A stretch of DNA of 64,000 nt from Thermoplasmatales archaeon SW_10_69_26 (lineage in GTDB: Archaea; Thermoplasmatota; SW-10-69-26): positions 1-64,000 of the forward strand of contig PXUB01000038.1 in assembly GCA_003009755.1 (NCBI GenBank), read 5' to 3'. Under the pieces are notes generated by a model. That model was given only the letters and a program-made list of their open reading frames with translations. It searched no databases and was not told the origin of the DNA. This document shows positions 11,192 to 64,000 of the stretch, piece after piece; the stretch's first letter is position 1, and every line of letters starts with the position of its first letter. The translations under genes were made by a program, and so were the position numbers.

Positions 11192-11336
11192 CGTTTGACC
11201 GCGCCCTGGTATTTGAATATTGGTTAACGACAGGTGGTCACGGAAGCCCGCTGAGGACCCCAACAGCCCCGCACCAGGCTCGGGCCAGGGCGTCGCCGTT
11301 GGGTGACCACTCGCCGAGGTGACCCATACTGGGCGC

Positions 11337-17937: not shown

Positions 17938-18058
17938 CAGGTCACCCTCCAACCCCCTCGCCCTTAAATCGTCCGACAGGGCCGGGCTCGACAGCTCACC
18001 GCTCTTGCCACCGCAGCCTTCACCAAGCAAGCCGGGCTCGGGTCGACGGAGCACGAGC

Positions 18059-18976
18059 GTGGCGATCGAGATCGACGGCCTGGCGAAGGCCTACGGCCGC
18101 CAGCGCGCCCTCGACGGGATCGACCTCGAGATCCCGACGGGCGCCACGTGCGGCCTGCTGGGCCCCCAAGGCGCCGGCAAGACGACCCTAGCCCGCTTGC
18201 TGGCCGGCCTCGAAGTCCCCACAGCCGGGAGCGCCCGCATCGACGGGCACCCGATCGGAGAGCCCCAGGCCACCGCGCGCCTCGGCTACATCCCCCATCC
18301 AGCCGGCTTCGACGAGGGCCGAACCCCCCGCCAGATGCTCCGCCTGGCCGGCCGCCTGCACGGGATCCCCACCAGCCGACGAGAGCGCCGCCTCGAGCGC
18401 CTGCTCATCGACCTCGGCCTGGAACACCTCGGCGGCCACGCGATCGAGCACCTCGACGGAGGCCACCGACGACGACTGGCACTCGCGCACGCGCTCGTGC
18501 CCGACCCCGACCATCTCGTCGTCGACGAACCCACGCGCGGCCTCGGCCCCGCCGCCAGTCGCCGCATGCGTGAGGCCTTGATCGAGAAGACGCGCGAGCG
18601 CACGCTGCTCGTCCTCACATCCATCCCCGACGATGTCGAGGCCCCGTGCGAGCGCGTCGTCGGGATCGAGGACGGCACCATCGTGCTCGACGCCGGCGTC
18701 CACGAACTCGCCGCCGACCACGGCGTCGCCATCGCGATCGGCCTCGCCGGCGAGCTCCCCCAACGAGCCCTCGACGAGCTGCGCGAACACGAGGCCGTGG
18801 CCGCCCTCCGACGCGACCCGACCGACGCCGACCTCGAGCTGTGGCTTACCGACCCCGACGAAGCCCCGGCCGTCCTCCGCCTGCTCGTCGAGGCCGACGC
18901 ACCCGTCGCCTCCTTCGACCGCCAGCCCCCACCGCTGGGCGCCACCGTCGCCGAACACATGGAGGGCCAGCTGTGA
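18059..18976 (+). CDS. ABC transporter ATP-binding protein (degenerate motifs)
   Basis: GPQGAGKTT Walker A, VVDEPT Walker B; signature LDGGH; H-loop His absent. Confidence 0.88.
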   Translation: MAIEIDGLAKAYGRQRALDGIDLEIPTGATCGLLGPQGAGKTTLARLLAGLEVPTAGSARIDGHPIGEPQATARLGYIPHPAGFDEGRTPRQMLRLAGRLHGIPTSRRERRLERLLIDLGLEHLGGHAIEHLDGGHRRRLALAHALVPDPDHLVVDEPTRGLGPAASRRMREALIEKTRERTLLVLTSIPDDVEAPCERVVGIEDGTIVLDAGVHELAADHGVAIAIGLAGELPQRALDELREHEAVAALRRDPTDADLELWLTDPDEAPAVLRLLVEADAPVASFDRQPPPLGATVAEHMEGQL

Positions 18977-20088
18977 TCCCCTCCCTCACCCAGCTCGTCG
19001 AGGAGCTGGACGCCGGGCTCGAACGAGAGGATCCCGAGCTCGTCTCCGAGACCGCCCGAACCCTGCGGGAGACGATCGCGAGGGCCCTCGGCGACCGCCG
19101 CCTGCAGGCCGAGGACCCGATCCTCGCCCGACGTCGCCGCCTGCACCAGCGCCTCGAAGTGTTGGAAGCCAAGGCTCAGGCCGGCCGCTTCGACGACGCC
19201 GACGACGACCTCGACGCCGTCCGCGAGATGGCCCACGAGACCGAACGCGCCCTCGAGCAACGCCCTGCCGCCGACACCGAACCCGAACCCGATCCCGGAC
19301 CCGGCCCCGACGCCAGCCTCCACCTGGCCCGCCGCGAAGCTCGCGCCACGGTGACGAGCCTCCCCGGCGCCGTCGTCGGGACCCTCAGCCTCCTCGTCTT
19401 CACGCTCGCCCTCCAAGCCAGCCTCGACGCTGCCCCGCGGACGCTGGCCGCCGTCTGGGCCAACGCCCGGACGCCGGCCCTCGCCCTGGCTCCCCTGGCC
19501 GGTCTCCTCGTCGGGATCGAGGGCCTCGCCGACGCCCGCGCCGGCCGCATCTGGCTTTCGGCCACCTCCGGGCTCTCGCGGACCCGGATCGTCGTGGCCG
19601 AAGCCCTCGGGGCGCTGGCCGCGCTTGCGGCTCTGCTGTTGGGGCCCGCCGTACTGGTGATCCTCGTCGGCCTGGGCCTGGGCTTGGCTCCCGACCCGAC
19701 GACCACCGCGCCCGTCCTCGGGGGCCTGTTCCTGCTGGCGACCAGCTTCACGGCGATCGCCTTCGCGTTCGCGGCCCGCCCGTCCTCGCGCTCGGTCACG
19801 TTGGCCGGCACCCTCGCCAGCTACCTCTGCCTTGGACCGGTCTGGGAGGCCGCCTTCGCCGCCGGCCAGGCCGCCGGCCGCGGGCGGGGGGCGCTGGTCG
19901 CCTCCCTGCTGCGCGGGCTCTCCCCGGTGAGGGCCGCCGACGCCCTCCTCTCTTCCGTCGACCCCTACGCTCTCCCGGCTGGTCGAGGCCTTCTCGTCCT
20001 CGCGGGCTGGACCGTGGCCGGCCTCGCGTTGGCCGCCTACCTCGTGCAGGAGCGAGGGTTCGGGCGGCCTCACCACGGCGAGCCGTAA
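18973..20088 (+). CDS. ABC-2-type permease with N-terminal helical domain
   Basis: 4-bp overlap with the ATPase; ~100-aa charged helical N-terminus then ~6 TM segments with a G.....L....SR..IV signature. Confidence 0.75.
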   Translation: MIPSLTQLVEELDAGLEREDPELVSETARTLRETIARALGDRRLQAEDPILARRRRLHQRLEVLEAKAQAGRFDDADDDLDAVREMAHETERALEQRPAADTEPEPDPGPGPDASLHLARREARATVTSLPGAVVGTLSLLVFTLALQASLDAAPRTLAAVWANARTPALALAPLAGLLVGIEGLADARAGRIWLSATSGLSRTRIVVAEALGALAALAALLLGPAVLVILVGLGLGLAPDPTTTAPVLGGLFLLATSFTAIAFAFAARPSSRSVTLAGTLASYLCLGPVWEAAFAAGQAAGRGRGALVASLLRGLSPVRAADALLSSVDPYALPAGRGLLVLAGWTVAGLALAAYLVQERGFGRPHHGEP

Positions 20089-20165: not shown

Positions 20166-22378
20166 ATGAGAGGCTCCCGACTCGCCACGATCGTGCTCGC
20201 GCTCGCCGTCACGACCGCCCCCACATCGTCACCGCCATGGGGGAGGACCGACCCGAGGACGCCGAGGCCACCTACCAACAGGCCTTCGCCCAGCACGGCG
20301 AGACCCTGCCCACGGTCGCGGACACCGTCGAGACCGCACTCGAGGACGCCCGCCAAGCCGAGCCCGGCTCCGCGGAGTACGCCGCCGCCTCGCAAACGGC
20401 CAAGAAGGGCGTGCTCGCCCTCAGCTACCACGCCGCGCACCGATTCGCCGACGACGACAACCGCGACGAGGTCGAAGCCTACATCGAGGTCCTCACCACC
20501 AAGTTCGACGGCGAAGAGCAACTGACCGAGACGAAGACCGCCGTCACCGACGACACGACCCCGCTCGACGAAGCGATGGCCACGCTCGACGCCGAGTACC
20601 GCGACCTCGTCACCGCCAAGGTCTACGCCGAGACCCAGGAAACCCCCGAGCTGCTCACCGCCGGCGAGACCACGACGGCCGCCAAGGAAGCCGGCGAGGC
20701 GCTCGGCTACGCGCTCAGCCTCCACGCAGGCGACCAGAGCCCACCCGAGAAGCTGTACGAGGAGCTCGACGGTCTCGTCGAGCACACGCTCGCCCAGGAG
20801 GAGGATGCCACCCGCGGCGAAGCCGACGAGATCCTCGCCCTGCTCGCCGACCACGCCCTCCAGACGACCCCCACCGAGAAGACCCAGGCCCGCCAAGCCT
20901 ACCTGGCCGCCCTCGACGGGGGCGACATCGACCGAGCCGAGACGATCTACGAGGGCAACTTCTCCGAACACGCCTCCGAGTACGCCCCCGAGGCCCACGA
21001 CCGCATCAACCAAGCCCTCACCGACATCCGCCAAGCCGACGGCGCCAACCGCACCGTCCAGCACGAGATCCTCGCCAAGTCGCTGCTCGACGTCGCCTGG
21101 TCGGTCGGCTTCACCGAGCTCGCCGAGGACGAGATCCACGAAGGGCTGGGTTACCTGGCGATCCTCGTCGAGACGTTCGACGACCCCACCGACCCCGACG
21201 AATTGGGCATGGCACTGGGTCATGTCGCCGCCAGCCAGTCCACCGACAACCCCCACCTGTCCACCGTCCGCGACACCGCCAGCGCCCACTTCCTCGACAA
21301 GGTCCACGAGGAGATCGACGAGGTCTTCATCAACTGGAACGACACCGAGACCGCGCGCGAGAAAGCCATCGAAGGCGTCCTCTACTACCAGCCGATCCGC
21401 GAGGAGGTCGCCCACACGCTCTCCGACGAGGACGCCGACCACCTCGCCGACGAGCTCCGCGGCCTCTACAACGCCACGACCGCCGGCGACCGCGAGGAAG
21501 CCGAACACGAAGCCGAGGAAGCCCGCGACCTGCTCGCCTCCTACGAGAACGCGGGCGAGGACGTCACCGAGATCGATACCGTCCTCACCGACATCGAGCG
21601 CAGCCTCTCGATCATCACCGTCGAGATCGAGGAGTACGTCGACTACAAGGCGGAGGGCAACGACGAGAAGGCCAACGAAGAGGTCGAGGAATCCAAGGCC
21701 TTCATCGGGCAAGCCATCGCCACCTTCGAGGACAACCGCCAGACGCTCGCGGCCGCCGACGCGCAAGCCGCCGACGAGCTCGAGGCCGACATGACCGAGA
21801 TCCAAGATCGCCTCGAGGCCGAGGAGGACATCCCCTCCATCCCCGACGTCGTCGAGCGCGCCATCGACCGCCTCGACGCCTTCGAAACCGACCAACCCGA
21901 AGGCCCTGCCGTCGACGTCGAGATCGGCGATCCCGTGAAGGAAGCGGAGACCGTCCGCGTGCCCATCCGCCTAGCCGACCCGCCGGAGGGCGGCTACAGC
22001 GTGCAAGCCACGATCACCTACGACGCCGAGCGGATCACCGTCGACAGCGTCGAGATCCCGGCCGAGGTCGGCGCCGAGACGAGCTCGCCCGGCGAGATCC
22101 GCTTCAACGCCGCCGAGACCGAGACCCCGGCCGACCCCGTGATCGCCCAACTGCACCTCGCCCCCGCCGATCCCGATGCCCCGCCCGAGCTCTCGGTCGA
22201 CGTCGAGACGCTCACGGACGGCCAAGGCGACCCCCTGGCTCTCGGCAACGTGACCGGCCAACAGCTCGACCTCGCCAGCGTCGGCGACGCGGGACCCACC
22301 AGCAACGTCCCGCTGGGTCCCGGCGCCCTCGTCGCCTCCATCGCCTCCGCGCTCGCGCTCGCCCGCCGACGACCCTGA
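20166..22378 (+). CDS. Large surface protein: acidic helical domains, C-terminal cohesin-like domain and membrane anchor; signal peptide out of frame by one base at C5 run 20218-20222
   Basis: MRGSRLATIVLALAVTTAP in the 20166 frame continues as HIVTAMGED in the 20237 frame; cohesin-like VRVPIRL..GGYSVQATITYD..PGEIRFNA; tail VPLGPG-TM-RRRP. Confidence 0.75.
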
Positions 22379-22389
22379 CCCCGACCCGC

Positions 22390-23277
22390 ATGTCGCTTGC
22401 CCGCGCCGCCGTCGGCCCGCTGCTCGCCTTCACCCTGGTAGCCGTGGCCTTCCCGGTCGGCAGCCAGGCGAGCGACGATCTCCGGGTGCCCCAGAGCCTC
22501 GCCGAACCCGCCGAGGACCTCCGCGATGGCCTCACCCAGGTCGCCGACGCCGACACGATCGACGAGGCCCGCCAGGCCCACGACGACGCCGTCCGAGGGC
22601 CGGCCGACCAACTGCTGCCCTACGCCAACGACCTCGCCGACCGCTCGGGGGACCTGCTGGCGACCTACCTCGATCGCCTGGACGAGCAGCTGGCGACCGG
22701 CAACCTCTCCGATGCCCGCTCGCTGGCCAGCGCCGGCGCCCAGCTCGTCGCCGACGACGTCCAACCCGTCGCCGAGCGCTGGGACCGCAACCGCACCGCG
22801 CTCGCCGCCGGCCCCGTCCAAGCGACGGACGAGGGCCCCGCCGTGGCGCTCGTCCTCGTCAACCCGCCGCCGGGGTCGATCGCCGCCGTCGACGCCAGCC
22901 TCACCCTCGAGGCGGCCACCCCGCGGTCCGCGAGCCTCGCGCTCGGTCAAGGCGAGACCACCGTCGACCCCGCCAACGGGACCGTGCGCTGGGCCAGCTT
23001 CGACGCCTCCGCGGCCGCCAGCTTGGCCACCGACGGCGCCCAACCCGTCGCGCTGGGCGAGGCCCGCATCGATCCCACCGGGGACACGATCGCAACGAAC
23101 GTCACCGTGCACGATCTGCTCGACGCCGACGGCCAGTCCACGCCCGCGATCGGGCTCGCCAGTGACCGCGAGGTCCCCACCGACGGGACCGGCCTCCCCA
23201 CGACCTGGCTAGCGCTGGGCGGGGTCGCGCTCGGCGCCGTCGGGCTCGGCTTGTGGGTCCAGAGGTGGGAACCCTGA
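22390..23277 (+). CDS. Membrane-anchored secreted protein: helical domain plus second cohesin-like domain
   Basis: Signal peptide; VALVLVNPP.GSIAAVDASLTL..DPANGTVRWASF..LGE..V.VHDLLDADG; C-terminal TM. Confidence 0.65.
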   Translation: MSLARAAVGPLLAFTLVAVAFPVGSQASDDLRVPQSLAEPAEDLRDGLTQVADADTIDEARQAHDDAVRGPADQLLPYANDLADRSGDLLATYLDRLDEQLATGNLSDARSLASAGAQLVADDVQPVAERWDRNRTALAAGPVQATDEGPAVALVLVNPPPGSIAAVDASLTLEAATPRSASLALGQGETTVDPANGTVRWASFDASAAASLATDGAQPVALGEARIDPTGDTIATNVTVHDLLDADGQSTPAIGLASDREVPTDGTGLPTTWLALGGVALGAVGLGLWVQRWEP

Positions 23278-24194
23278 GCGCCCCCATCGAAGCCCGCAAC
23301 CTCACGAAACGCTACGACGACCTCGACGCCATCCGCGGCCTCTCCCTGAGCGCCGACGAAGGCCAGGTCCTCGGCCTCCTGGGCCCCAACGGGGCCGGAA
23401 AGTCGACCACGATCAAGGTGCTCGTCGGCCTCGTCCACCCCACCGAGGGCGAGGCCTGGATCGGCGGCCACCACGTCCAAGACGAGGGCATCCAGGCCCG
23501 CCGCCAGCTGGGCTACCTCCCCGAGGTCGTGGGCCTGTACGAACAACTCACCGCCGAGGCATATCTGCGCTACATCGCCCGTTTCCACGGCACCAGCGGC
23601 CCCCGCGCCACCCACCGCATCGAGGCCCTGTTGGCCGACGTCCGCCTGACCCAAGCCGCGGACCGACCGATCGGCACCTTCTCCAAGGGTATGCGTCAAC
23701 GCCTGGCGCTGGCCGGCGCCCTCTTCCACGATCCCCCCGTCCTCGTCCTCGACGAGCCGCTCACCGGGCTCGACCCGGAGGGCATCGTCAAGATGAAGCA
23801 GGCGATCGAGCAACTCGGCCGCCAGCGCACCGTGCTCGTCTCCTCCCACGAGCTCCACGCCGTGGAGTCGCTTTGCGACCGTGCGATCATCCTCCGCGAC
23901 GGCGAGGAGCTCACCTCGGCGCCCGTCGCCGAGCTCACCCGACGCGATCCCCCTCGCTACACCCTCACCACGGCCGACCCCTTGCCCGAGCCTCGAGCCT
24001 TGACCGACGTCGACGGCGTCCGATCGATCCACGCCTCCTCCCAGAGCACGCTGCAGGTCGAGGTCACCGACGCCGACGCCGCCTCCCTCCTCGTGGACCA
24101 CCTCGTCCGCGGGGGCCACCGCGTCCGGCACCTCGAACGCGACGAACGCACCCTCGAGGAAGCCTTCGTCGACATCACGGGGGTCCGCGCGTGA
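23253..24194 (+). CDS. ABC transporter ATP-binding protein
   Basis: GPNGAGKST, FSKGMRQRL, LVLDEP, SSH. Confidence 0.93.
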   Translation: MGPEVGTLSAPIEARNLTKRYDDLDAIRGLSLSADEGQVLGLLGPNGAGKSTTIKVLVGLVHPTEGEAWIGGHHVQDEGIQARRQLGYLPEVVGLYEQLTAEAYLRYIARFHGTSGPRATHRIEALLADVRLTQAADRPIGTFSKGMRQRLALAGALFHDPPVLVLDEPLTGLDPEGIVKMKQAIEQLGRQRTVLVSSHELHAVESLCDRAIILRDGEELTSAPVAELTRRDPPRYTLTTADPLPEPRALTDVDGVRSIHASSQSTLQVEVTDADAASLLVDHLVRGGHRVRHLERDERTLEEAFVDITGVRA

Positions 24195-25390
24195 GCGATC
24201 CCTGGACCGACCTCGAGCAAGCCCTCGCCGGGGACGACCCCGCCCAGGTCCACCGCACGACCGACCGCATCCGCGACGCCGTGCGCGGGGCCTTCGAGGG
24301 CCGCCAGCTCGTCCGCGGCTCCCTGCTCGTCGAACGCCGCCGCCGGCTCGAGCACACCCTCGCCGAGCTCGACGACGCGGTCGCCGGCGACCGGATCGAC
24401 GAAGCCCGCGAGCGAGCCGAGCAGGTCCGCGAGCTGGCCCCCGCCCTCGTCGACCAAGCCCGCCAGCTCGACCCGATCGACGCCGAGGAGGAGGTCTCGA
24501 CCGGCGGCTGGTTGGCCAACGCCGGGACCGTCGCCCGCAAGGAAGCCGTGCTCGGCATCCAGGGAACGCGCGGGCTGTTGCTGTTCGGCATCCTGGGGCT
24601 CACGTTCGGCATCGGCCTGCGGTCGGCGATCGGCGGCTCCACGGCCACCGGCGGCCAAGCCAGCGTCAAGCTCGTGTGGAACTACGCCCACAGCCTCGCC
24701 TTCCTCGCCCTCCCGCTGGCCGGCCTCCTCGCCGGGCACGGGCTCGTCAACGAGGAACGCCGCTCGGACACGATCCACATCCTCGCCGCCCAACCCGTGG
24801 GCCGGATCGGGATCGTCCTCGGCAAGTGGCTGGGCATGGCCGCCACCCTGGGCTTGGCCGTCGCCGCCAGCGCGGGGCTCGTCGGCACCGCCGCTTACGC
24901 CGTGACCGGGACGCTGGGCCCCCCGAGCGCCGCGGTCACCTACCCGCTGGCCTGCTTCGGGCTCGCCTTGGCCTTCGGCTCGATCGCGCTGCTGGCCAGC
25001 ACCTTGCTCGAGCGCACCGGTCCCACCCTCGCCGTCGGGCTGGCCAGCTTCGTCCTGCTCGGCCCGGTCTGGCAGAACGCCTTCCTCACCCGCTCGCTGG
25101 AGCAGGCCGGCACGATCCCCGATCCGGGCTCCGTGCTCGTCTACCTCGCCACCCCGTTCACCGCCTGGTGGAACTGGACCAGCGAGCTGTTGGGTCCCGT
25201 GAACGACGCCACCGGGCTCCCCCAGGGCGAACCCTGGCACGCCGCGCTGGTCAACGCCGTCGAGACCGGGGCCCTCGAGGCGCTCCCGTTCTACGCGACC
25301 CAACCCTACTACGCGATCGTGATCGCCGCCTGGATCGCCGTCTGCCTCGGCCTCGCCGCCGCCGTCTTCCGCCGCCAGGATCTGGCCTGA
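24191..25390 (+). CDS. ABC-2-type permease with N-terminal helical domain
   Basis: VARKE, EERRSDTIHILAAQPVGR.GIVLGKWLG, terminal FRRQDL. Confidence 0.85.
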   Translation: MSDPWTDLEQALAGDDPAQVHRTTDRIRDAVRGAFEGRQLVRGSLLVERRRRLEHTLAELDDAVAGDRIDEARERAEQVRELAPALVDQARQLDPIDAEEEVSTGGWLANAGTVARKEAVLGIQGTRGLLLFGILGLTFGIGLRSAIGGSTATGGQASVKLVWNYAHSLAFLALPLAGLLAGHGLVNEERRSDTIHILAAQPVGRIGIVLGKWLGMAATLGLAVAASAGLVGTAAYAVTGTLGPPSAAVTYPLACFGLALAFGSIALLASTLLERTGPTLAVGLASFVLLGPVWQNAFLTRSLEQAGTIPDPGSVLVYLATPFTAWWNWTSELLGPVNDATGLPQGEPWHAALVNAVETGALEALPFYATQPYYAIVIAAWIAVCLGLAAAVFRRQDLA

Positions 25391-25438: not shown

Positions 25439-25454
25439 TCTAGGCAGCCCTAAA
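25439..25454. promoter_or_regulatory. Second DtxR/IdeR-like operator, overlapping the start codon
   Basis: TCTAGG-CAGC-CCTAAA; same spacing to an upstream AAGGTAC as the 20121 box. Confidence 0.6.
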
Positions 25455-26428
25455 TGGTGCCCGACGCCCCGCTGCCGACCCTGCTGCTCGCCGCGCTCGT
25501 CCTGACACCCAGCATCCCGGGCGCCCTCGGCCAGGACACCCTGTCCACCGAGGAGCTCGAGACCCGGCTCGACGAGCTGCAACGACGAAGCCAGCAAGCC
25601 GTCGACCGCTACGAGGCCGGCGACCGGGACCAGGCCCTCGACCACGCCCGCCACGTCCGCGAGGCCTTCACCTTCGCGGAGGGCAACGCCTCCGTGCTCG
25701 AACGCACGATCAACGACGTCAGCGCGGTCACCATCGGTGAACAGGTCAAGGCTCAAGCCTCCCGCCTGGCCAGCGCCATCGACGCCGGCGACCCCGTCGA
25801 GGAGGTCCAACAGTCGCAGACCGAGCTGGAACCCCTGCTCAACCGGCTCGTGCTGGTCTCGAAAGGCGAGCACGCGCCCGCGAGCCAACGCCAACTCACC
25901 ACCGAGGAATCCATCCACGAGGCCGCCCAGGAGGTCCGCGACCTCGTCGACGAGGCCGTCACCCTCTACACCGAAGACCAACCCGAGGCGGCGCAGAAGA
26001 GCGCCGAGGACGCCTTCTTCGCGTTCGAGCAGAACGGGCTCGGCCCCGACACGACCGTCGTCGACGAAGGGCTCGAGAACGAGGTCGAACACGACATCAA
26101 GAACTTCCAGGGGGAGGCCGGCGAGCCCGGCCTGGCCGACCTGATCGAGCACGGCGCCCCCGTCGGGGAGGTCGAGGACCAGGCCCAGACGGTCCACGAC
26201 GGCCTCGACCAGATCGTCACCCTGCTCGAGGCCACCAAGCCGCCCAGCGACCTCGGCGACGCCAACCAGGACGGCGACGTCACCATCGTCGATGCCCTCC
26301 TCACCGCGCAAGCCTCGCTGGGCATCCAGGCCGAGGACCCCACCATGGACGCCAACCAAGACGACGCCGTCACGATCGTCGACGCCCTGCTGATCTCGCA
26401 AGCCGCCCTCGGCATCCGGGATCTGTGA
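25454..26428 (+). CDS. Secreted protein: two FTR1-N-terminal-like helical domains plus C-terminal dockerin
   Basis: Signal peptide; duplicated GDANQDGDVTIVDAL / MDANQDDAVTIVDAL calcium loop-helix repeats. Confidence 0.85.
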   Translation: MVPDAPLPTLLLAALVLTPSIPGALGQDTLSTEELETRLDELQRRSQQAVDRYEAGDRDQALDHARHVREAFTFAEGNASVLERTINDVSAVTIGEQVKAQASRLASAIDAGDPVEEVQQSQTELEPLLNRLVLVSKGEHAPASQRQLTTEESIHEAAQEVRDLVDEAVTLYTEDQPEAAQKSAEDAFFAFEQNGLGPDTTVVDEGLENEVEHDIKNFQGEAGEPGLADLIEHGAPVGEVEDQAQTVHDGLDQIVTLLEATKPPSDLGDANQDGDVTIVDALLTAQASLGIQAEDPTMDANQDDAVTIVDALLISQAALGIRDL

Positions 26429-26432
26429 AACC

Positions 26433-27818
26433 GTGACGACGACCCCGACCTGCGCCACACCGAGCCGCTCGACGAGCCCCAGCGCTTCGACCGGGCTCGT
26501 CCTCCTCGCCCTCGCGCTGGTCGGGACGAGCCTGGCCCCGACGGCCACCGCCGCCGGCGACGCGTCCCTCCCCGACCAACTCGACACCTTCCGCGCCCAG
26601 ATCGAGACCGCCGTCGCCGACTACGAGGCCGCCTACGCCAACTACACGGAGGCCACAAGCGACGAGGAGCGCCAGCAGGCCCGCCAGGCCATGCACGAGG
26701 CCGGCCGCGCGGTCGGATCCGCCTTCCTCGCCTTCGAGCAAGGCCACGGCGACGACGGCTCCCTGTCCGTGTTCATGCAGACCCAGATGGACCAGGGCTT
26801 CTACCGCTCCTTCGAGCAGGACGTCGTCCTGCTGCGAGCCACGATGACGGACGCCGACACCGGCGAGGTCCCCACGCCCGCCGAGGTCGATGCCAAGACC
26901 TCGCCGGTGTTCCAGTCGCTGGACCGAGCCGAGGGCTGCTTGCCCGAGGGATGCGGGTCCGCCTGGACCGGCGCCGCCGCCCAGTCCTTCCTCGTGCTCC
27001 TGCGCGAGGGCTTCGAGGCGGTGCTGTTGGTGGGCGCCATCGTCGGTTACCTCCACAAGAGCCAACGCTCGGAGAAGGTGGCCAACGTGTTGAGCGGCGT
27101 CGGCGCCGCGCTGGTCGCCACGATCGCGACCTGGGTCCTCTTCGACCGGTTGTTCGCCGCGGCCGCCCGCAGCTCGTTCGCCCAGGCCACGCTCGAGGCC
27201 GCCACGATGCTGTTGGCGTCCGCGATCCTCTTCTACGTCGGGTTCTGGCTGCTGTCGAAGACCGAGTCCGACCGCTGGCGAGCCTTCATCGACGGCAAGC
27301 TCGAGGATTCCCTGGCCGACGACCGCGGCTGGATGCTCGCCCTCGTCGGGTTCCTGGCCGTGTTCCGCGAGGGCGTCGAGACCGTCGTGTTCGTGCAAGC
27401 GATCTCGCTCGGCAGCGGCGGCGCCTGGGGGGAGATCGGGCTCGGCCTCGGGCTCGGGGTCCTCGCCCTCGCCGGGTTGTACTACGCGTTCCAACGAGCC
27501 AGCGTCTCCGTCCCGCTGCGGACGTTCTTCGGCGTCACCAGCGGCATCCTGTGCCTGCTGTCCCTGCGCTTCCTCGGGTTGGGCGTCTTCGAGCTGCAAG
27601 AGGCCGGCCTGCTGGGCGCTACCCCGCTCGACGCCGTCGGTGCCGTCCTCGCCCAGAACGCGCTGCTTGGAACCCTGGCCGGCGCCCTCCTGGGCTTCTC
27701 GCCGACGCTCGAGGTCGCCATCGCTCAAGCGTTGCTGGCCGCCGTCATCCTCGCCGGCGTCGTGTGGACCTTCCTCGTCCGGCCCGCCCGAGCCACAGCC
27801 CCCGCCGCCGGCGGGTGA
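26433..27818 (+). CDS. FTR1-family high-affinity iron permease with extracellular N-terminal domain
   Basis: Two RExxE motifs (LREGFEAVL, FREGVETVVF), ELQEAG, ~7 TM. Confidence 0.93.
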   Translation: MTTTPTCATPSRSTSPSASTGLVLLALALVGTSLAPTATAAGDASLPDQLDTFRAQIETAVADYEAAYANYTEATSDEERQQARQAMHEAGRAVGSAFLAFEQGHGDDGSLSVFMQTQMDQGFYRSFEQDVVLLRATMTDADTGEVPTPAEVDAKTSPVFQSLDRAEGCLPEGCGSAWTGAAAQSFLVLLREGFEAVLLVGAIVGYLHKSQRSEKVANVLSGVGAALVATIATWVLFDRLFAAAARSSFAQATLEAATMLLASAILFYVGFWLLSKTESDRWRAFIDGKLEDSLADDRGWMLALVGFLAVFREGVETVVFVQAISLGSGGAWGEIGLGLGLGVLALAGLYYAFQRASVSVPLRTFFGVTSGILCLLSLRFLGLGVFELQEAGLLGATPLDAVGAVLAQNALLGTLAGALLGFSPTLEVAIAQALLAAVILAGVVWTFLVRPARATAPAAGG

Positions 27819-27821
27819 GCC

Positions 27822-28574
27822 TCAGGGATCGAAGCCGTCCTCGTCCTCGAGGCTCGGGTGCTTGTCGGGCGGCGCATCGCGCGGCTTGGCGAAGTACTCC
27901 TGCATCACCTGCACGCTCTCGTGCTCGCGCCGGTTGCGCTCCTCCTTGGGGATCTCCTCGCACCCCTTGGGGACCTCGCGGTCGCGCAGCGTGAAGTAGC
28001 CCTCCGGGGCCACCCAGTCGTGGTAGAACGCCGGGTCGACGTCCTCGACGAGCGTGATCGCCACCTTCGCGCCGTGGCCGGCGCTCACGATCGTCTGGTG
28101 GTACTCCTCGGCCAGCCGGCCGGCCGCGTACAACCCGTCGACCGCGGTCCGGCCGTCGTCGTCGATCGCGACGTAGGTCTTCGAGCCGCTGTCCCGCAGG
28201 TCGACGTCCAGATCCTCGAGGTAGGCGGGGCTGGACTTCGTCGCCGCGATCACGTTGCCGGCGGACACCGTGCCCTCGCTCGTCTCGATCCGGAACCCGT
28301 CGCCCTCGGCCTCGATCGCCTCGACCTTGGCGTCGCGACGATCGCCGCCGTTGCGGTCGACCTGGTCCGCCATCATATCGATCAGCAACCGCGGGTTCAC
28401 GCCGGCCGGGAACCCCGGGTAGTTCTCGAGGTGGGCGTTGCGCTTCACGATCGACGCCCCGTGGTTGATCACGAGCGTGTCCAGCTCGGCGCGCGCGGTG
28501 AAGATCGCGGCCGAGAGACCGGCCACGCCGCCGCCCACGATCACGACGTCTCGGTGCTGGCTGGCCTCGGGCAT
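27822..28574 (-). CDS. NAD(P)/FAD-dependent oxidoreductase (short thioredoxin-reductase-like)
   Basis: GGGVAGLSAA, ENYPGFP, T.VDGLYAAG; no CxxC. Confidence 0.85.
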   Translation of the reverse strand: MPEASQHRDVVIVGGGVAGLSAAIFTARAELDTLVINHGASIVKRNAHLENYPGFPAGVNPRLLIDMMADQVDRNGGDRRDAKVEAIEAEGDGFRIETSEGTVSAGNVIAATKSSPAYLEDLDVDLRDSGSKTYVAIDDDGRTAVDGLYAAGRLAEEYHQTIVSAGHGAKVAITLVEDVDPAFYHDWVAPEGYFTLRDREVPKGCEEIPKEERNRREHESVQVMQEYFAKPRDAPPDKHPSLEDEDGFDP

Positions 28575-28712: not shown

Positions 28713-29642
28713 ATGACGGACCCCTGGCCCGACGTCTACCTCACCGGACCAGGCCGGTCGGGGACGACCTCCCTGTACCAGTACCTCACCCAGCACCCCG
28801 AGATCTACGCCGGCCCGACGAAGGAGCACCGGTACTTCGACGAGACCGTGCCCGCGGTGGAGGACGACCCCCAGGCGCTGGCCGAGGCCCGCGAGGACTA
28901 CCTCGACCGGTTCCGGGGAGCCGAGGGCCACGAGCTGGTCGTCGACGGCACGCCCAGCTACGTCTACTACCGGGACGCGCTGGAACGCATCCACGAGAGG
29001 CGCCCGGATGCGCGGTTCATCACCAGCTACCGCGACCCCGTGGAACGCACCTACAGCCTCTACTGGCTGATGGTCGCCTCCGGCAAGGAGGAGATGGACT
29101 TCCTCGACGCCATCGAGGAGGGCCTGGCCGACGACCGCGCCGGCCGCTACCACACCGATCGCGTCAAGTTCATCCGCAACAGCCGCCAGGGCACCCAACT
29201 GCAGCGCCTGTACGAGATCTTCGGCGAGGACCAGGTGCTCGTGCTGCTCTTCACCGACGTCGTCGAGGACACCAGCCAGGTGCTCGTCGACGTCGCCGAG
29301 TTCCTCGACATCGATCCCGAGGTCGCCGGCGAGCTCGACACCGAGACCCAGCACAACGCCACGCCGGGCGTCCCGCCCAACGAGCTCGCCCACATGATCC
29401 GATCCTCCGACACGCTCAAAACGATCGCGCAGACGCTGTTGCCCGAGAGCGTGCGCGACTTCCTCGGCAACCAGGTGCTGCTCGAGGAGCGCGAGAAGCC
29501 ACCGATGGATCCCCAGGCCCGACGCAAGCTCGCCGATGTGTTCGAACCCGAGGTCCGCCAGGTCGAGAAGCTGCTCGACCGCGAGCTGCCCGAGCTGCGG
29601 GCCTCCTGGCCCGAGGACGTCGGCCGACGAGCCGAGCCTTGA
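28713..29642 (+). CDS. Sulfotransferase 1
   Basis: GPGRSGTTSLY..L.QHP, KE..YF, DGTPSY, RDPVERTYS. Confidence 0.9.
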   Translation: MTDPWPDVYLTGPGRSGTTSLYQYLTQHPEIYAGPTKEHRYFDETVPAVEDDPQALAEAREDYLDRFRGAEGHELVVDGTPSYVYYRDALERIHERRPDARFITSYRDPVERTYSLYWLMVASGKEEMDFLDAIEEGLADDRAGRYHTDRVKFIRNSRQGTQLQRLYEIFGEDQVLVLLFTDVVEDTSQVLVDVAEFLDIDPEVAGELDTETQHNATPGVPPNELAHMIRSSDTLKTIAQTLLPESVRDFLGNQVLLEEREKPPMDPQARRKLADVFEPEVRQVEKLLDRELPELRASWPEDVGRRAEP

Positions 29643-29644
29643 CG

Positions 29645-30685
29645 ATGGGCGAGCTCCCGCCACGGCTGAACTGGGCGCGGACGATCGCCGTCGCTCGCAC
29701 CGGCCAGGCCGTCGACCGGCTCAGCGCGCTGCTTCACCGACCGCGCGTCGAGGATGCCATCGTGATCGCCAGCTCCCCCCGAGCCGGATCGACGCTGTTG
29801 ATGGACATCCTCGCGACGCTCGACGGGTACCGGACCGTGTTCGAACCCCTGCACCCGCACTGGTACGCGGGGGTCCGCAAGCTGGGGCTGGGTCCCCGGC
29901 CCTGCCTCGTCGACGGCGCCGCCCCCGAGGGCACCGAGGCCTACCTGCGCGAGGTCCTCACCGGCCGGGAGGCCGGCGCATACCGCCTGACCCGCTTCGC
30001 CGCCACGCTGCCCGGCCGTCTGCTCGAGGGCAACCTCGTCGTCAAGTGCGTGCGCCTGAACCGGCTGCTGCCCTGGTTCGAGTCCACCTTCGACACGCGC
30101 GGGACCGTGCTCCTGCTTCGCCACCCCTGCGCCACCGTCGAATCCCAGCTCCGCAGCAACGTCCACGGCTACCCCGACCACCGGGCCGGGTTCCCCCCGG
30201 CCGAGCAGGTCCAAGACCACGCCCTGCGAGCGCTGGACCTCGGCGCGCCCGAGGACCTCCGCGAGCGCATCCGCTCGGTCGACACCCCTGCCGGCCTGAT
30301 GGCGCTGTCCTGGGCGGTGGACACCCTGATCCCGCTGAGCCATCCCGGTCCCGAGCGCACGACGGTGTTCTACGAGGATCTCGTCACGGACGGACCCGCC
30401 CAGCTCGATCGCCTGTTCGGCGCCCTCGACACCGCCAGGCCCGCCCGAGCGCTGGACGTGCTCGGTGCCCCCAGCCTGACCGTGGACGAGGACGCCGGGG
30501 GCCAGGACTACCTCGAACGCTGGACCGAGGGCCTCGACGACGAGCAGACCGACCGCATCCTCGAGATCGCCGCCTGGTTCGGCCTCGAGGACCTCTACGA
30601 CGAAGCGCCCACCCCGCGCGTGGACCGCGCCGACGACGTCCAGCTGCCCGCCTGGGTGGACCGGCCGGCCCAGCCACAACGATAG
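29645..30685 (+). CDS. Sulfotransferase 2
   Basis: SSPRAGSTLL, FEP, LLRHPCATVES, YEDLV. Confidence 0.85.
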   Translation: MGELPPRLNWARTIAVARTGQAVDRLSALLHRPRVEDAIVIASSPRAGSTLLMDILATLDGYRTVFEPLHPHWYAGVRKLGLGPRPCLVDGAAPEGTEAYLREVLTGREAGAYRLTRFAATLPGRLLEGNLVVKCVRLNRLLPWFESTFDTRGTVLLLRHPCATVESQLRSNVHGYPDHRAGFPPAEQVQDHALRALDLGAPEDLRERIRSVDTPAGLMALSWAVDTLIPLSHPGPERTTVFYEDLVTDGPAQLDRLFGALDTARPARALDVLGAPSLTVDEDAGGQDYLERWTEGLDDEQTDRILEIAAWFGLEDLYDEAPTPRVDRADDVQLPAWVDRPAQPQR

Positions 30686-30717
30686 GGCTCTTGTGTTGAG
30701 CGGCGTTCACCCGCCCG

Positions 30718-32316
30718 GTGCTCGCCCGCAAGAGCGCACTGATCGTCCTCAACGCCGTCGTCGGCGGCGCGTTGGGGTTCGTCGCCCTCAAGGTCGTCGC
30801 CCTCTACATGGGAGCGGGGATCTACGGCCAGCTCGCGTACGCGACGAGCCTGGTCGGCCTGGTCATGTTCCTCGGCAACATGGGCTTCACCAAGGCCCAT
30901 GCCAAGCGCGTCAGCGAAGGCGAGGACGTCGGCGACTGCGTGGCGACGCTCACCGCCTGGAACGGCGCGATCGCGAGCATCTACATCCTGATCGTGCTCG
31001 GCGCGTTCGCCGCCAACGAGCTGTTCCTCGGCCAGGACCTGTTCTCCACGACGCAGACCACGATCCTGCTCGTCACGCTGGCCGAGGCCGCCTTCTTCAT
31101 GCGCAAGGTCGCCCGCAGCACGTTCGAGGCCCGCGTCGAGGCGGCGCTCAGCGAGTCGGTCGTCTTCTTCGAGCACATCGTCCGCACCCCGATCATGGCG
31201 GCCGGCGCCCTCCTGTACGCCTCCTCCCAGGGCCGGGAGGGCCCGATCTTCGGCTGGTTGCGCGCCAACGCGCCCGGGCTGACGGACATCGTCGCCGAGT
31301 ACGCGCCCGAGACGCTGGCGTTCGCCGTCACGGCGGCCGCGGTCGTCTCGATGACGGTCGGGTTCGTCCTCTTGCTGCAGCGCGTCAAGCCCGGCGACTT
31401 CAGCATGAAGATGGTCCGCAGCTACGCCGAGTTCGGGCTGCCCGTCTTCGGCGCCAGCTCGTTCAACAGCCTGCAGCAGTACCACGACAAGGCCGCGCTC
31501 GGGTTCTTCTGGTCGGATGCGGTCGCCGGCCGCTACTTCGGCTTCCAGCGCCTGTTCAGCTTCCTGGAGGCCGTGTACGCCGCCGTCCGGTCGATGCTGT
31601 TCCCGATGATCAGCGAACGCCACGCCGAGGGCGACCGCGAGGGCGTGCGCCGGTTGTCCCGCGAGTCCCTGCGGTACCTGTCGATGATCAGCGTCCCCGC
31701 CGCGTTCGGCGCGACCGCGCTCGCCGAACCCCTCATCCGGATCATGCTGTCCGAGGACTGGCTGCCCGCCGTCGAGGTCTTCATCGCGCTCGCCTTCGTC
31801 TACCCCCTGCGCGGCATCGTGCAGACCCTCACCCAGATCCAGTACGGCAGCGACGAGCCGAAGATGTCCGCCGGCATCTCGATGTTCGGCTCGACGATGA
31901 ACGTCGTCGTCGGCCTGCTGTTGATCCCCTCCAGCGTGCTCGGCTTCCAGCTCGGCGGCCTGGCCGGGCTCGGCGCGGCTGCTGGCACCCTCGTCGCGCT
32001 CGTGCTCGATGCCGGCGCGCGCGCCTACACGCTCCAGTTCCCGCTCGGCCGGCGCGTCTGGCTGAGCTGGCTGCGGCACTGGATCGCCGGCGGCCTGATG
32101 GCCTACGTCGTCTACCGAGCCAGCCTGGCCATCGGCGAGGTGCGATGGTTCATCCTGCCGGCCTTGATCGCGCTCGGCGGCGTCGTCTACTTCGCCCTGC
32201 TGTGGGTGTTCCGCGACTTCGGGAGGGACGACGCCATGGTGTTCTGGGCCGCCGTGCACCCCGGCGAGATGGCCTCCTACGTCAAGGACGAGGTCCTGCT
32301 CGACGACGAGGACTGA
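30718..32316 (+). CDS. Oligosaccharide flippase (Wzx/MOP family)
   Basis: 12-14 TM; DKAALGFF..AGRY, LFPMISE, G.AGAA.GT pattern. Confidence 0.85.
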   Translation: MLARKSALIVLNAVVGGALGFVALKVVALYMGAGIYGQLAYATSLVGLVMFLGNMGFTKAHAKRVSEGEDVGDCVATLTAWNGAIASIYILIVLGAFAANELFLGQDLFSTTQTTILLVTLAEAAFFMRKVARSTFEARVEAALSESVVFFEHIVRTPIMAAGALLYASSQGREGPIFGWLRANAPGLTDIVAEYAPETLAFAVTAAAVVSMTVGFVLLLQRVKPGDFSMKMVRSYAEFGLPVFGASSFNSLQQYHDKAALGFFWSDAVAGRYFGFQRLFSFLEAVYAAVRSMLFPMISERHAEGDREGVRRLSRESLRYLSMISVPAAFGATALAEPLIRIMLSEDWLPAVEVFIALAFVYPLRGIVQTLTQIQYGSDEPKMSAGISMFGSTMNVVVGLLLIPSSVLGFQLGGLAGLGAAAGTLVALVLDAGARAYTLQFPLGRRVWLSWLRHWIAGGLMAYVVYRASLAIGEVRWFILPALIALGGVVYFALLWVFRDFGRDDAMVFWAAVHPGEMASYVKDEVLLDDED

Positions 32317-32317
32317 C

Positions 32318-33157
32318 TCACGCCTGGAACCCGTAGTCGGCCAGGAACGGGTACCGGTCGAGGCGCTGCTCGATCTCCTCGACGACCTCCGCGTCCCACT
32401 CGACCTCCTCCCGGCGGCGGTTGGGCTCGTCGTACACGAGCTCGGCACACGGCTCCAACCACTCGCTGGGCGCCTCCACGCCGAGGAACGACGCCATGTT
32501 CGATAGCTCGCGGGCGGTGTGCTGGATCAGGTCCTCGTGGCGCACGTCCAGGTACTCCTCCTCGTCCATCTGCTCGCGCGCCCAGGCACACGTGTCGGCG
32601 AGCCGGAAGTACAGCCGGGTTGCCGAGGCCAGCGAGATGTCCCCCACGCGCGCCATCGTCGTGATGTTGTCGAACGGGTTGCGGGTGACGTGCAGGGCCC
32701 GGATCGGATCCTCCACGCGCTCGCGCAAGAGCTCGAGCTTGTCCTCGTCCTGGGCAAGCCAGTTGCTCGTGGCCGCACCCTCCTTGTCCCCGATCACCTC
32801 GAGATCGGTCCAGGTGCCCTGCCAGGCGCCCTCGACGTCGTAGGAGTAGCCGGTCCACTCGCGGCCGCGGTCGGCGAACCAGCGATCGCGGTCGAGGATG
32901 AGCGCGTAGATCTGTTCCCGGGCGAAGCCCGGCTTCAGGTACCGCAGGACGTTGAGCTCGTGGCTGATCACCGTGTTCGGGTGGGCGTTCAACAGCTGGC
33001 CGACGAGCGAGTGCCCGCTGCGAGGGTACCCGATGAAGAAGCAGAACGTCTCGATCCCGTCGAGCAGGGACCGCTTGCGGACCGCATCCCACCACGACGA
33101 GGCGTAGTCCGGCACGAGATCGTGCTTGCGACGGACGAGATCGATCAGACCGCCCAC
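32318..33157 (-). CDS. Sulfotransferase 3
   Basis: GYPRSGHSLVG.LLNAHP, GDK, RNPFDNITT, RHEDLI. Confidence 0.85.
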   Translation of the reverse strand: MGGLIDLVRRKHDLVPDYASSWWDAVRKRSLLDGIETFCFFIGYPRSGHSLVGQLLNAHPNTVISHELNVLRYLKPGFAREQIYALILDRDRWFADRGREWTGYSYDVEGAWQGTWTDLEVIGDKEGAATSNWLAQDEDKLELLRERVEDPIRALHVTRNPFDNITTMARVGDISLASATRLYFRLADTCAWAREQMDEEEYLDVRHEDLIQHTARELSNMASFLGVEAPSEWLEPCAELVYDEPNRRREEVEWDAEVVEEIEQRLDRYPFLADYGFQA

Positions 33158-33264
33158 GGCGTGGTCGAACCGATGGCATAGCTTAGGCGTTTCGCAAACG
33201 CGCCGGCGCCAAGCCCGGGTGAGAACTGAAAACCTAAACCGGCGGGCCCGCGTCCGTGCCAGCG

Positions 33265-34146
33265 ATGCCGGACCCGCCCGTCCCCCTCGACTTCATCGTG
33301 TTCGCGTCGCAGAAATCGGCATCGACGTGGTTCTGCCGCTGCCTCGACGAACACCCCGAGATCGCGATCGGGTACCCCTACGAGAAGCGGTTCCTGCGCG
33401 AACGGGAGGGGTGGGTCGAACGCGAGGAGAACCCGCAGTTCCTCGACGACTGGGAGGCCTACCGCGACCAGTTCCCGGACAAGGAGGACCACCAGCTGCG
33501 CGGCGACGGCGACGTCGAGCTGTACTACAACGAGTCCGGCCCCGACGTCGTCGAGAAGTTCTACCCCGACGTCAAGCTGATCGCGATCCTGCGCGACCCC
33601 GTGGCCCGGATCCGGTCCGAGTACGCCTACCGGGTGCGCGACCCCAAGGTCGAGGAAGGCACCCTCGAGGAGTACATCGACGAGAGCCTCACCATCGACC
33701 GATCCAGCTACGCCAAGCAGCTGGACCCCTGGTTCGACCGGTTCGGCGAGGACCAGATCCTCGGGCTCCCCTGGACCGAGCTCGGCGAGGAGGGCGAGGA
33801 CCTGCTCGAGGAGGCCTTCGCGTTCCTGGACGTCGATCCCAGCGTCGAACCGCCCTCGCTCACGGAGCGCGTCAACCCCCACCGGGAGAAACAGCCCTGG
33901 TTCCAGGCCTTGGAGTCGGTGGCCCGCGGCCTCCGCCGCCTCGGGCTGGGACCCTTGATGGATCTGGTGAACCGCGTCGGGGTCGGCCCAGCCGTGCGCG
34001 AGGTCGGCGACCCGCCGGCCGACAAGCCCGAGATGCCGCCCGAGATCGAGGCCGAGCTGCGCCGCGAGCTGGCCGACGACATCGACCAGCTCGAGACGAT
34101 GATCGGCAAGGACCTCAGCGCCTGGAAACCCGAGCCCGAGGCCTGA
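33265..34146 (+). CDS. Sulfotransferase 4
   Basis: DFIV..QKSASTW..L.EHPEI, KLIAILRDPVARIRSEY. Confidence 0.85.
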   Translation: MPDPPVPLDFIVFASQKSASTWFCRCLDEHPEIAIGYPYEKRFLREREGWVEREENPQFLDDWEAYRDQFPDKEDHQLRGDGDVELYYNESGPDVVEKFYPDVKLIAILRDPVARIRSEYAYRVRDPKVEEGTLEEYIDESLTIDRSSYAKQLDPWFDRFGEDQILGLPWTELGEEGEDLLEEAFAFLDVDPSVEPPSLTERVNPHREKQPWFQALESVARGLRRLGLGPLMDLVNRVGVGPAVREVGDPPADKPEMPPEIEAELRRELADDIDQLETMIGKDLSAWKPEPEA

Positions 34147-60499: not shown

Positions 60500-60527
60500 G
60501 TGGGAGTCCGCTAGGAACATTTAAGTC

Positions 60528-63456: not shown

Positions 63457-63579
63457 TCTGGCATATCTAGCCCTGGAGGACACCGGGGCCTCCTTCCCCG
63501 ATTTCTTTCTCTGATCAGGCAGGTGTCTCGTCTTCTGTTCCTCTGCCTTCTTTTCTACCACCTCCCCCCTCCAAGTTAG

Positions 63580-64000
63580 CCTCTGTGCCTAGCGGTCACG
63601 AGGTACGCGCAGGATCACCGCAACCCCTCGCTCGAGGGACCCCCGGGCTCGACCACAGGCTTCGGGTTCCTCTGGGGCAACGGTGAGACGACCGATCAAG
63701 CGCGAACGGGCCTGCAAGGGGTGAACCTGGGCCCCGGTGACACCGACGTCACCGGCTTCGGCGCGACCGCGTCGGTCGGCCTGGACCCGTTGAACCCCGA
63801 CGGGGCCTATGCGGATAGCCCTGTCGGCTCTGCAGGCGCGACCGTGGGCGCTGTTCCCATCGAAGCCGTGGACGAGGTCGTGTACCACTACAACGTGCCG
63901 AACCCGATCTCGGACCCCGATGGGGGTATCATCCAGACGTACATCTACGTGCAGAACGAGCCAGGCGCGACGACCTTCGGGTCCAGTCCGATCACCGATC
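63580..64000 (+). CDS. Partial ORF running off the window (secreted-type beta-rich protein fragment)
   Basis: Stop-free frame from 63580 (..VDEVVYHYNVPNPISDPDGGIIQTYIYVQNE..); first GTG at 63721. Confidence 0.35.

Follow-up and report, generated by a model that had tools for sequence, protein, structure and literature searches.

A dockerin protein with a putative duplicated FTR1/FetM-type outer module, encoded with cohesin proteins and an FTR1 permease in a Thermoplasmatales archaeon

Introduction

Why should an archaeon encode a secreted protein that ends in a dockerin immediately upstream of an FTR1-family metal permease? The question is raised by a stretch of 64,000 nucleotides from Thermoplasmatales archaeon SW_10_69_26 (assembly GCA_003009755.1, contig PXUB01000038.1, positions 1 to 64,000 of the forward strand), hereafter the window, in which the open reading frame (ORF) at 25454-26428 encodes what we call the dockerin protein. 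An earlier note on this DNA had described a dockerin fused to helical repeats resembling the N-terminal domain (N-domain) of the adjacent permease, and took the protein for a detached, dockable copy of the permease's own extracellular iron-handling domain. All the strings that it quoted are found in the translations of 25454-26428 (+ strand) and 26433-27818, and its observation is confirmed because the dockerin, the internal duplication and the homology to the FTR1 N-domain were each borne out. The protein is best explained as Sec-exported and very acidic, with a body that is a tandem duplicate of the permease's outer four-helix module. As for its role, we hold with moderate confidence that it is a cohesin-dockerin-tethered accessory of the FTR1 metal permease.

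Results

The dockerin protein

The C terminus is identified as a type I dockerin, as the earlier note had it, by family models and by profile matches to solved dockerins. The Pfam model Dockerin_1 (PF00404) covers residues 267-316 with 22.7 bits in an hmmscan of the window protein (cut-off 22.9), and a six-frame search of the genome gives the same site 25.2 bits, above the cut-off. Precomputed PF00404 annotations are on 18 of the 19 clusters that form the family at 90% identity, and the 19th, the protein encoded in the window, is displayed without any domain annotation; the five representatives scanned with Pfam all score 31-47 bits. A profile of the last 62 residues, built from five loci, retrieves ten solved chains at E <= 0.01: seven dockerins, headed by that of CelS (E 1.4e-5), and three EF-hand proteins, which are less well covered. 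The tail is also the best-conserved region of the family, with a mean column identity of 79%.

Two tandem segments of about 22 residues, each an EF-hand-like loop followed by a helix, make up most of this tail. They are identical at 18 of 23 positions, which agrees with the near-symmetric duplicated calcium-binding loop-helix described earlier. Both contain the pattern D-x-N-x-D-x-x-x-x-x-x-D, with D, N, D and D at loop positions 1, 3, 5 and 12, and AlphaFold2 (AF2) places helices at residues 278-288 and 308-318, where the predicted local distance difference test (pLDDT) score is low (50-61). Segment positions 10-11 are I-V in both halves and positions 17-18 are A-Q and S-Q; we take these to be the cohesin-contacting positions of type I dockerins. 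A dual cohesin-binding mode is plausible, because both halves carry the same residues at these presumed contacts. The genome, which is 95% complete, has this one dockerin. A weak second match on contig C22 turned out to be an FG-GAP/fn3 protein.

The mature protein counts 65 acidic (D+E) and 18 basic (K+R) residues, with an isoelectric point of about 4 and zero cysteine. Cleavage of the signal peptide probably occurs after residue 26; the segment before it has pLDDT values below 50 in the AF2 model, and varies in sequence among homologues while keeping its hydrophobicity in all of them. The G+C content of the window is 70%. Near-identical DNA is present in runs labelled as halite metagenomes from two studies besides the possible source run, and contigs of the second study span the dockerin gene at about 97% identity with zero indels listed within it.

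The body between signal peptide and dockerin is, by profile comparison, a tandem duplication. Its two repeats of about 115 residues (27-146 and 147-262) match each other with an hhalign probability of 96.6% (E 5e-10, score 58.8) on an alignment of 19 sequences, against a maximal score of 18.9 in 100 column shuffles and 12.4 for the reversed alignment. The two helical repeats noticed earlier are thus homologous under shuffle control. The AF2 model, computed on the same alignment, has a mean pLDDT of 73.7, mostly above 90 in the helices, and forms two bundles, with helices at 32-54, 58-70, 81-88, 92-111 and 115-136 in repeat 1 and at 151-173, 177-193, 205-215, 227-232 and 237-260 in repeat 2. 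The invariant residues of repeat 2 are F188, F189, E192, N194, G197, D199, D204, L207, E208 and E212. Searches of the body sequence against the PDB gave chance-level matches (best E 0.005 over 38 residues), and no model matched the four-helix module in Pfam and NCBIfam scans of proteins carrying it. The suggested kinship to imelysin/EfeO gained no support: the Pfam M75/imelysin model (PF09375) has no match in the dockerin protein at E <= 0.1, and Foldseek lists one imelysin chain, 3n8u_B, in 35th place with a non-significant E of 1.1, none being among the 50 VIA rows displayed.

The permease encoded next to the dockerin protein scores above the FTR1 family cut-off and has two RExxE motifs in membrane helices, REGFE (191-195) and REGVE (312-316), whose residues R191, E192, G193, E195, R312, E313, G314 and E316 are invariant in 15 sequences. 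Its NCBIfam EfeU/Ftr1 matches are below cut-offs, and we judge that it is not an EfeU orthologue because its EfeU equivalog score (111) is under the cut-off of 255. In its AF2 model (pLDDT 81.3), the N-domain has helices at 46-73, 77-106, 111-118, 123-142 and 149-169, its long and short helices following one another as in the models of the detached repeats. This domain keeps Y64, E102-x-x-H105, Y124 and E128, and archaeal members also keep C169-x4-C174.

BLASTP of the body against the permease is marginal (14/43 identities, E 0.02). When the repeats were aligned with the FTR1 N-region by hhalign, as the earlier note had proposed, repeat 2 proved homologous to it: it matches a five-sequence N-domain profile with a probability of 93% (E 3.4e-7, score 45.0, 93 columns), or of 89% (E 2.2e-6) when a smaller alignment is used. 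The highest score among the shuffles is 21.7, and reversing the alignment gives 10.7. Repeat 1 matches weakly (42%, 28 columns, first helix only). The resemblance claimed for both repeats therefore stands for repeat 2 and is weak for repeat 1. Profiles of the repeats and of the FTR1 N-domain were also compared with the acidic helical regions of the two cohesin proteins described below. Since these controls score below 2% in probability, the match of repeat 2 to FTR1 reflects homology rather than amino-acid composition, and we rejected the idea that the module is related to the long helical stretches of the cohesin proteins. Across the detached copies and the remote FTR1 modules, conservation is highest at three positions: the tyrosine that ends helix 1, the glutamate that ends helix 2 (E192) and another glutamate within helix 3 (E212). 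D199, D204 and E208 lie around these two glutamates in the detached family.

A search free of any prior choice of partner gave the same answer. A dockerin-free profile of the body, run against 1.84 billion protein representatives, has 15 matches at E <= 1e-3, which we scanned with Pfam except for P0025 (a 208-residue fragment among the strong matches) and P0028 (a weak one). Six matches are strong (E <= 1.5e-54; 208-343 residues), and the five scanned all have a dockerin. Among the eight scanned of the nine weak matches, four are FTR1 permeases of 655-1246 residues. A further three of the weak matches are separate proteins in which the module is repeated several times. The alignments of repeat 2 to P0033 (residues 466-562) and P0026 (residues 796-891) score 40 bits and stop 11-12 residues short of the FTR1 domain. 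The body is thus, by homology, a detached double copy of the module that precedes the membrane domain in FetM-type permeases; the covalent link to that domain is absent, and the protein ends in the dockerin without a membrane domain. P0026 (1246 residues) naturally combines in a single chain a P19-type 'Fe2+ transport protein' domain with the four-helix module and an FTR1 permease, and by domain context it links the putative module to iron handling.

Another of these proteins, P0034, shares 47% identity, over 91% of its length, with a plasmid-encoded 'FTR1 family iron permease' of E. coli, whose gene is followed by those of an 'iron transporter', an 'Fe-S-containing protein' and ABC permeases, that is, the FetMP-Fls/FetABCDEF layout. 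This E. coli FetM matches the repeat profiles at about 15-103, 130-187 and 257-356, with single-target E values of 3e-10 (repeat 1) and 2e-9 (repeat 2); the matches are weak, 12-23 bits per module, and the profile of the window's FTR1 N-domain has no match to it (E 0.018). A FetM-like query matched 1008 plasmid records, 811 from Escherichia and 745 predicted to be conjugative. Six of the eight records listed have no annotated feature beneath the match; the PLSDB gene table being incomplete, these could be pseudogenes or genes missing from the table.

Cohesin proteins and the conserved gene row

The earlier note's notion of a dockable protein gains substance from two membrane-anchored cohesin proteins encoded in the same conserved gene row (Table 1). 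Protein 1 is assigned by profile: its five-sequence alignment retrieves, at E <= 1, 23 solved chains whose titles all name a cohesin or scaffoldin, 17 of them at E <= 0.0014 and the best at 4.6e-8. Its Pfam Cohesin (PF00963) scores are 20.1 and 23.2 bits for a cut-off of 24.1, and PF00963 is on 3/8 clusters of its homologues. Protein 2, which has no direct Pfam match and no sequence match to a solved structure, is assigned through protein 1, whose profile matches its beta domain with an hhalign probability of 96.8% (E 2e-10). A docked partner would be held near the membrane, because the cohesin adjoins the membrane anchor in both proteins. The predicted complex of the protein 1 cohesin with the dockerin and two calcium ions scores 0.22, for a mark of 0.32, in a run made with no controls.

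The 5' end of the gene for cohesin protein 1 deserves mention. Its homologues have 755-783 residues and are thus 42-70 residues longer than the 713 called in the window, and the contigs of two runs break exactly at 20222/20223. The end of the ORF is likely an assembly junction or a 1-base frameshift, rather than a true truncation. A signal-peptide-like ORF (MRGSRLATIVLALAV...) starts at 20166 in a different frame (window 20166-20240). Elsewhere in the genome (G000:C1:105278-105580, - strand; locus L006 1270-2142), an ORF of 290 residues has a weak cohesin-like domain (Pfam 16.9 bits; hhalign 89.6%, E 1.9e-6) and is a possible third socket for the single dockerin. The DUF5059 family (PF16502), to which Atlas leads pointed (feature score 0.90; structural template-modelling score 0.31 for cohesin protein 1), gained no support from its hidden Markov model (HMM): this has no match in the window proteins, its sole match in the genome (E 0.118) is elsewhere, and none of the 151 genomes of the phylum has one.

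The row reads, on the + strand, ABC pair, cohesin 1, cohesin 2, second ABC pair, dockerin protein and FTR1, with intergenic gaps of 11, 63 and 4 bp, the last of these separating the dockerin gene from that of FTR1. We retrieved 30 loci from a set of 185,579 species genomes; 26 of them match the dockerin region only, and the four matching the whole dockerin protein come from three Thermoplasmatota metagenome-assembled genomes (MAGs) and one Anaerolineae MAG. In the window and in all four full-length loci, FTR1, the dockerin protein and cohesin protein 1 are encoded side by side on one strand. Three of the four loci (L007, L008 and L010) also have the ABC pair and cohesin protein 2; the fourth contig has just 8.7 kb. 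The ATPase next to the dockerin gene (23253..24194) is 52-53% identical to those of L007 and L008 and 42% to that of L010; the permease beside it has no signal peptide. The upstream ABC pair (18005..20088) is in the window only. L007 and L008 have one pair, and either permease copy used as query matches one and the same gene there.

The evidence for synteny comes from five loci, three belonging to a single archaeal class, because the lists of cohesin-1 and dockerin homologues have no contig in common and scans of metagenome contigs, with the body profile and then with P0007, found no relative. The family is tiny, with 19 clusters at 90% identity and 6 at 50%. In the Anaerolineae contig (L010 1036-8161), the same six genes occur in another order at 27-42% identity, which suggests either that the row moved as a whole from one domain to the other or that the contig was wrongly binned. 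Cohesin protein 1 has there an N-terminal lipobox-like signal (LAVAC), not a C-terminal anchor.

Table 1. Features of the gene row in the window
Feature	Position	Strand	Remarks
Second, paralogous ABC ATPase	18005-18976	+	Pfam ABC_tran 86.3 bits
Second ABC-2-like permease	about 18970-20088	+	Weak ABC2_membrane_2 match
Cohesin protein 1	20237..22378	+	713 residues as called; acidic helical region of ~530 residues, cohesin, C-terminal membrane helix, basic tail
Cohesin domain of protein 1, residues 557-681	21905-22279	+	Five-sequence profile against solved cohesins
Cohesin protein 2	22390..23277	+	295 residues; signal peptide, helical domain, cohesin-like beta domain, C-terminal membrane helix
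Divergent cohesin-like beta domain of protein 2, residues 147-264	22828-23181	+	hhalign against cohesin profile
ABC transporter ATPase, DrrA/GldA-like, ABC-2 type	23253..24194	+	Pfam ABC_tran 111 bits; NCBIfam below cut-offs
ABC-2 family permease	24200..25390	+	ABC2_membrane_2 90.2 bits; N-terminal helical extension of ~95 residues, start approximate
Dockerin protein	25454-26428	+	324 residues, secreted, acidic
Predicted signal peptide, residues 1-26	25454..25531 (mature part from 25532)	+	Hydrophobic stretch LPTLLLAALVLTPSIPGALG
Helical repeat 1, residues 27-146	25532..25891	+	Four-helix bundle; AF2 and hhalign against repeat 2
Helical repeat 2, residues 147-262	25892..26239	+	Four-helix bundle, FTR1/FetM N-module homologue; AF2, hhalign, remote FTR1 matches
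Type I dockerin, residues 263-324, plus stop codon	26240..26428	+	Pfam, profile matches to solved dockerins
Calcium-loop/helix segment, residues 269-291	26258-26326	+	
Calcium-loop/helix segment, residues 299-321	26348-26416	+	
FTR1/EfeU-family permease	26433..27818	+	461 residues; Pfam FTR1 (PF03239) 83.2 bits, cut-off 25.3
Outer four-helix N-domain of FTR1, residues 41-185	26553-26987	+	AF2; preceded by N-terminal hydrophobic helix

Genomic surroundings

The usual outer partners of FTR1 permeases were not found, because neither P19/FetP nor M75/EfeO has a match at E <= 0.1 in this genome of 95% completeness. A second FTR1 gene, without the N-terminal module, is located at G000:C22:26430-27206 (- strand; locus L038 6949-9267); its 773-residue frame has a soluble C-terminal extension of about 430 residues. 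In yeast, multicopper ferroxidases are the partners of Ftr1. The window encodes a three-domain, CueO/CopA-like multicopper oxidase of 558 residues (NCBIfam below cut-offs) 9 kb upstream of the row (9587-11263), parted from it by unrelated genes and on the opposite strand. Converging on the end of the FTR1 gene is a thioredoxin-reductase-like flavoprotein of 250 residues (27822-28574, - strand), short for a model of 300 positions and matched mainly over positions 9-118; passages of PMC10783030 mention thioredoxin-like genes in FetM clusters. Further downstream, the region 28713-34146 has three sulfotransferase genes and a Wzx/MurJ-like flippase, and probably serves a sulfated surface glycan. 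From 60001 to 64000, the G+C content falls from about 0.70 to 0.58-0.60, and this end of the window may be foreign DNA or an RNA-gene region.

Discussion

Our results are consistent with the dockerin protein being a tethered accessory of the neighbouring permease. According to this model, the dockerin would plug into the cohesin next to the membrane in one or both of the C-terminally anchored proteins, whose genes lie three and four places upstream, a pairing within the row that we infer from the gene order and domain assignments. Docking would keep the soluble double module at the cell surface, and some tether would be needed because an archaeon without a closed periplasm would lose an untethered soluble accessory. 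The modules might then capture or relay a metal, most likely iron, through the carboxylates of the turn between helices 2 and 3 (E192, D199, D204, E208 and E212), and pass it to the N-domain of the permease (Y64, E102-x-x-H105, Y124, E128 and C169-x4-C174) above the REGxE channel. We favor metal capture and hand-off as the putative role of the modules because the conserved residues bear carboxylate, tyrosine and histidine side chains, the typical ligands of iron. The co-conserved ABC-2 transporter would presumably serve the same metal-uptake process, much as the ABC transporter of FetMP-FetABCDEF clusters may do.

Several observations weigh against this reading. The fold of the body is generic: Foldseek found nothing in the PDB at E <= 1e-3, VIA-align returned a flat list of unrelated four-helix bundles with Z <= 12.7, within the common-helical range, and the body matches no metal-binding family. 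Repeat 1 is tied to the FTR1 domain solely via repeat 2, and the detached copy does not retain H105 and Y124, which are invariant in the FTR1 N-domain. On the side of the tether, the hmmscan score of the dockerin is 0.2 bits short of the cut-off, cohesin protein 1 scores below its own cut-off and protein 2 has no direct match. The ORF of cohesin protein 1 lacks an in-frame signal peptide in the window, and a third, weak cohesin-like ORF sits elsewhere in the genome. Finally, the system is patchy, being present in four of the 21 genomes of the class, the window's own included.

Some of these observations might be explained otherwise. The detached modules could carry no metal at all and pair bundle-to-bundle with the permease N-domain, as a structural, gating or regulatory subunit whose local concentration or stoichiometry is set by the dockerin-cohesin link. 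The loss of H105 and Y124 fits this idea, as does the presence of many extracytoplasmic sensor domains (NarX, NarQ, McpS, PilJ, HK9) among the generic-bundle matches, and paralogous domains often hetero-oligomerise. Yet, the feature that is most conserved in repeat 2, and that it has in common with remote FTR1 modules, is the pair E192/E212 in an acidic turn, which looks like a cation site and less like an interface. We thus regard the subunit hypothesis as unlikely, while taking it seriously. That the C-terminal repeats are ordinary calcium sites of the EF-hand type, stabilising a halophilic protein without binding any cohesin, seems to us very improbable. Three of the ten solved matches of the tail are indeed EF-hand calcium-binding proteins, and the window protein's own Pfam score is slightly low, but the seven better-covering matches are dockerins, the paired duplication of 22-23-residue loop-helix units with a short linker is the layout of dockerins, the tail is what the family conserves most, and the two best cohesin matches of the genome are encoded in the same conserved row.

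A different kind of doubt concerns the substrate. The name of the iron/lead transporter superfamily, in which excerpts of PMC7285068 place FTR1, is a reminder that the row might take up or detoxify a metal other than iron, or be a surface or export system built around the ABC-2 and cohesin proteins. The window has two ABC-2 pairs, the DrrA/GldA-like ATPase is of the exporter type, a multicopper oxidase is encoded 9 kb upstream, and the Atlas leads pointed to DUF5059/halocyanin copper proteins. This last lead has no HMM support, and the oxidase is encoded on the other strand behind unrelated genes. Both REGxE motifs, which we take to be typical of iron-transporting FTR1/EfeU, are invariant, and in P0026 a distant relative of the module is naturally joined to FTR1 and to a P19-type 'Fe2+ transport protein' domain. 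A substrate or function of this other kind therefore appears distinctly unlikely. More daring is the idea that the six genes build a self-contained, energised 'metal-osome' on the naked membrane of an archaeon living in halite, in which the symmetric dockerin would let the iron-carrying double module switch between, or bridge, the two cohesin anchors, and the ABC-2 transporter, instead of pumping, would act as an ATP-driven mechanical coupler that forces the release of metal into the FTR1 channel, the whole having moved between archaea and Chloroflexota as a unit. NosDFY, FtsEX and MacB-type systems are such mechanical couplers to extracytoplasmic partners. We think this improbable; if true, it would be the first case of a cohesin-dockerin machine that serves membrane transport specifically.

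A tethered accessory of the FTR1 permease would extend cohesin-dockerin assembly from the display of enzymes to an outer accessory of a permease, within one compact and conserved operon, and this compactness makes the cognate cohesin-dockerin pair easy to test. Our analysis also reveals an unannotated domain family, the four-helix module before the membrane part of FetM-type FTR1 permeases, including those of many enterobacterial conjugative plasmids. The detached double module, being soluble, free of cysteine and 236 residues long, is a convenient protein for learning what the N-domain of FetM binds. A small cohesin-dockerin pair suited to saturating salt could also aid protein assembly at high salt.

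Taken singly, the elements of this system are already known: cohesin-dockerin pairs outside cellulosomes, transporter accessories tagged with a dockerin, and FTR1 permeases with additional outer domains. Their combination appears to be new: among the papers listed from the literature collection searched, judged partly from titles and the starts of abstracts, we found none on an iron-uptake system joining dockerin, cohesin and FTR1, and none that treats the FetM N-domain's structure or function. One literature match to the three terms was discarded, its Ftr1 being a formyltransferase. The closest permeases are those of the FetM type (FetMP-Fls of E. coli and Salmonella, FetMP-FetABCDEF of C. 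jejuni), whose gene layout is described in parts of PMC7285068 and PMC10783030. They have the same four-helix module of about 100 residues, with the common pattern [AS]-[VIL]-x-x-Y-x-x-G-[DN] ... [DE]-A-[FY]-[FL]-x-[FV]-E ... L-x-x-x-[LVI]-E. In FetM this module directly precedes the FTR1 membrane domain, whereas here it is also found detached, secreted, duplicated and fused to a dockerin. FetM clusters also include an ABC transporter, which they require and whose substrate is unknown according to passages of PMC10783030; the ABC system of our row is of the ABC-2 type. The partner of FetM is the copper protein P19/FetP, not found in this genome, whereas the partners here would be cohesin proteins.

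EfeO and EfeM (imelysin, M75) are likewise soluble and helical accessories that act outside the cytoplasm and are encoded next to a permease of the FTR1 family, but the detached copy has neither an M75 match nor an HxxE-type motif. As in the cellulosomal dockerins of Clostridium thermocellum, two near-identical calcium-loop/helix segments make up the dockerin, and its best solved matches are the CelS and Cel48 dockerins. Cellulosomal type I dockerins have a dual binding mode, and the recognition pairs of C. thermocellum are Ser-Thr and Lys-Arg, whereas the corresponding positions here are I-V and A/S-Q; in contrast with cellulosomes, the row encodes neither an enzyme as cargo nor a scaffoldin with several cohesins. 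Archaeal cohesin-dockerin pairs outside cellulosomes were reportedly treated by Peer et al. in 2009. Like our row, Archaeoglobus fulgidus and anaerobic methanotrophic (ANME) archaea have single cohesins or dockerins on non-cellulolytic surface proteins, and sections of PMC9012536 report that ANME dockerins are carried by the extracellular binding proteins of NikA/OppA and TroA metal/peptide importers. The row described here differs from these archaeal pairs in that the dockerin and the cohesins are co-encoded, in one conserved row, with the presumed client transporter. Compared with the ANME systems, this transporter is an FTR1 permease instead of an ABC importer, and the docked protein would be a paralogue of the permease's own domain rather than a classical binding protein.

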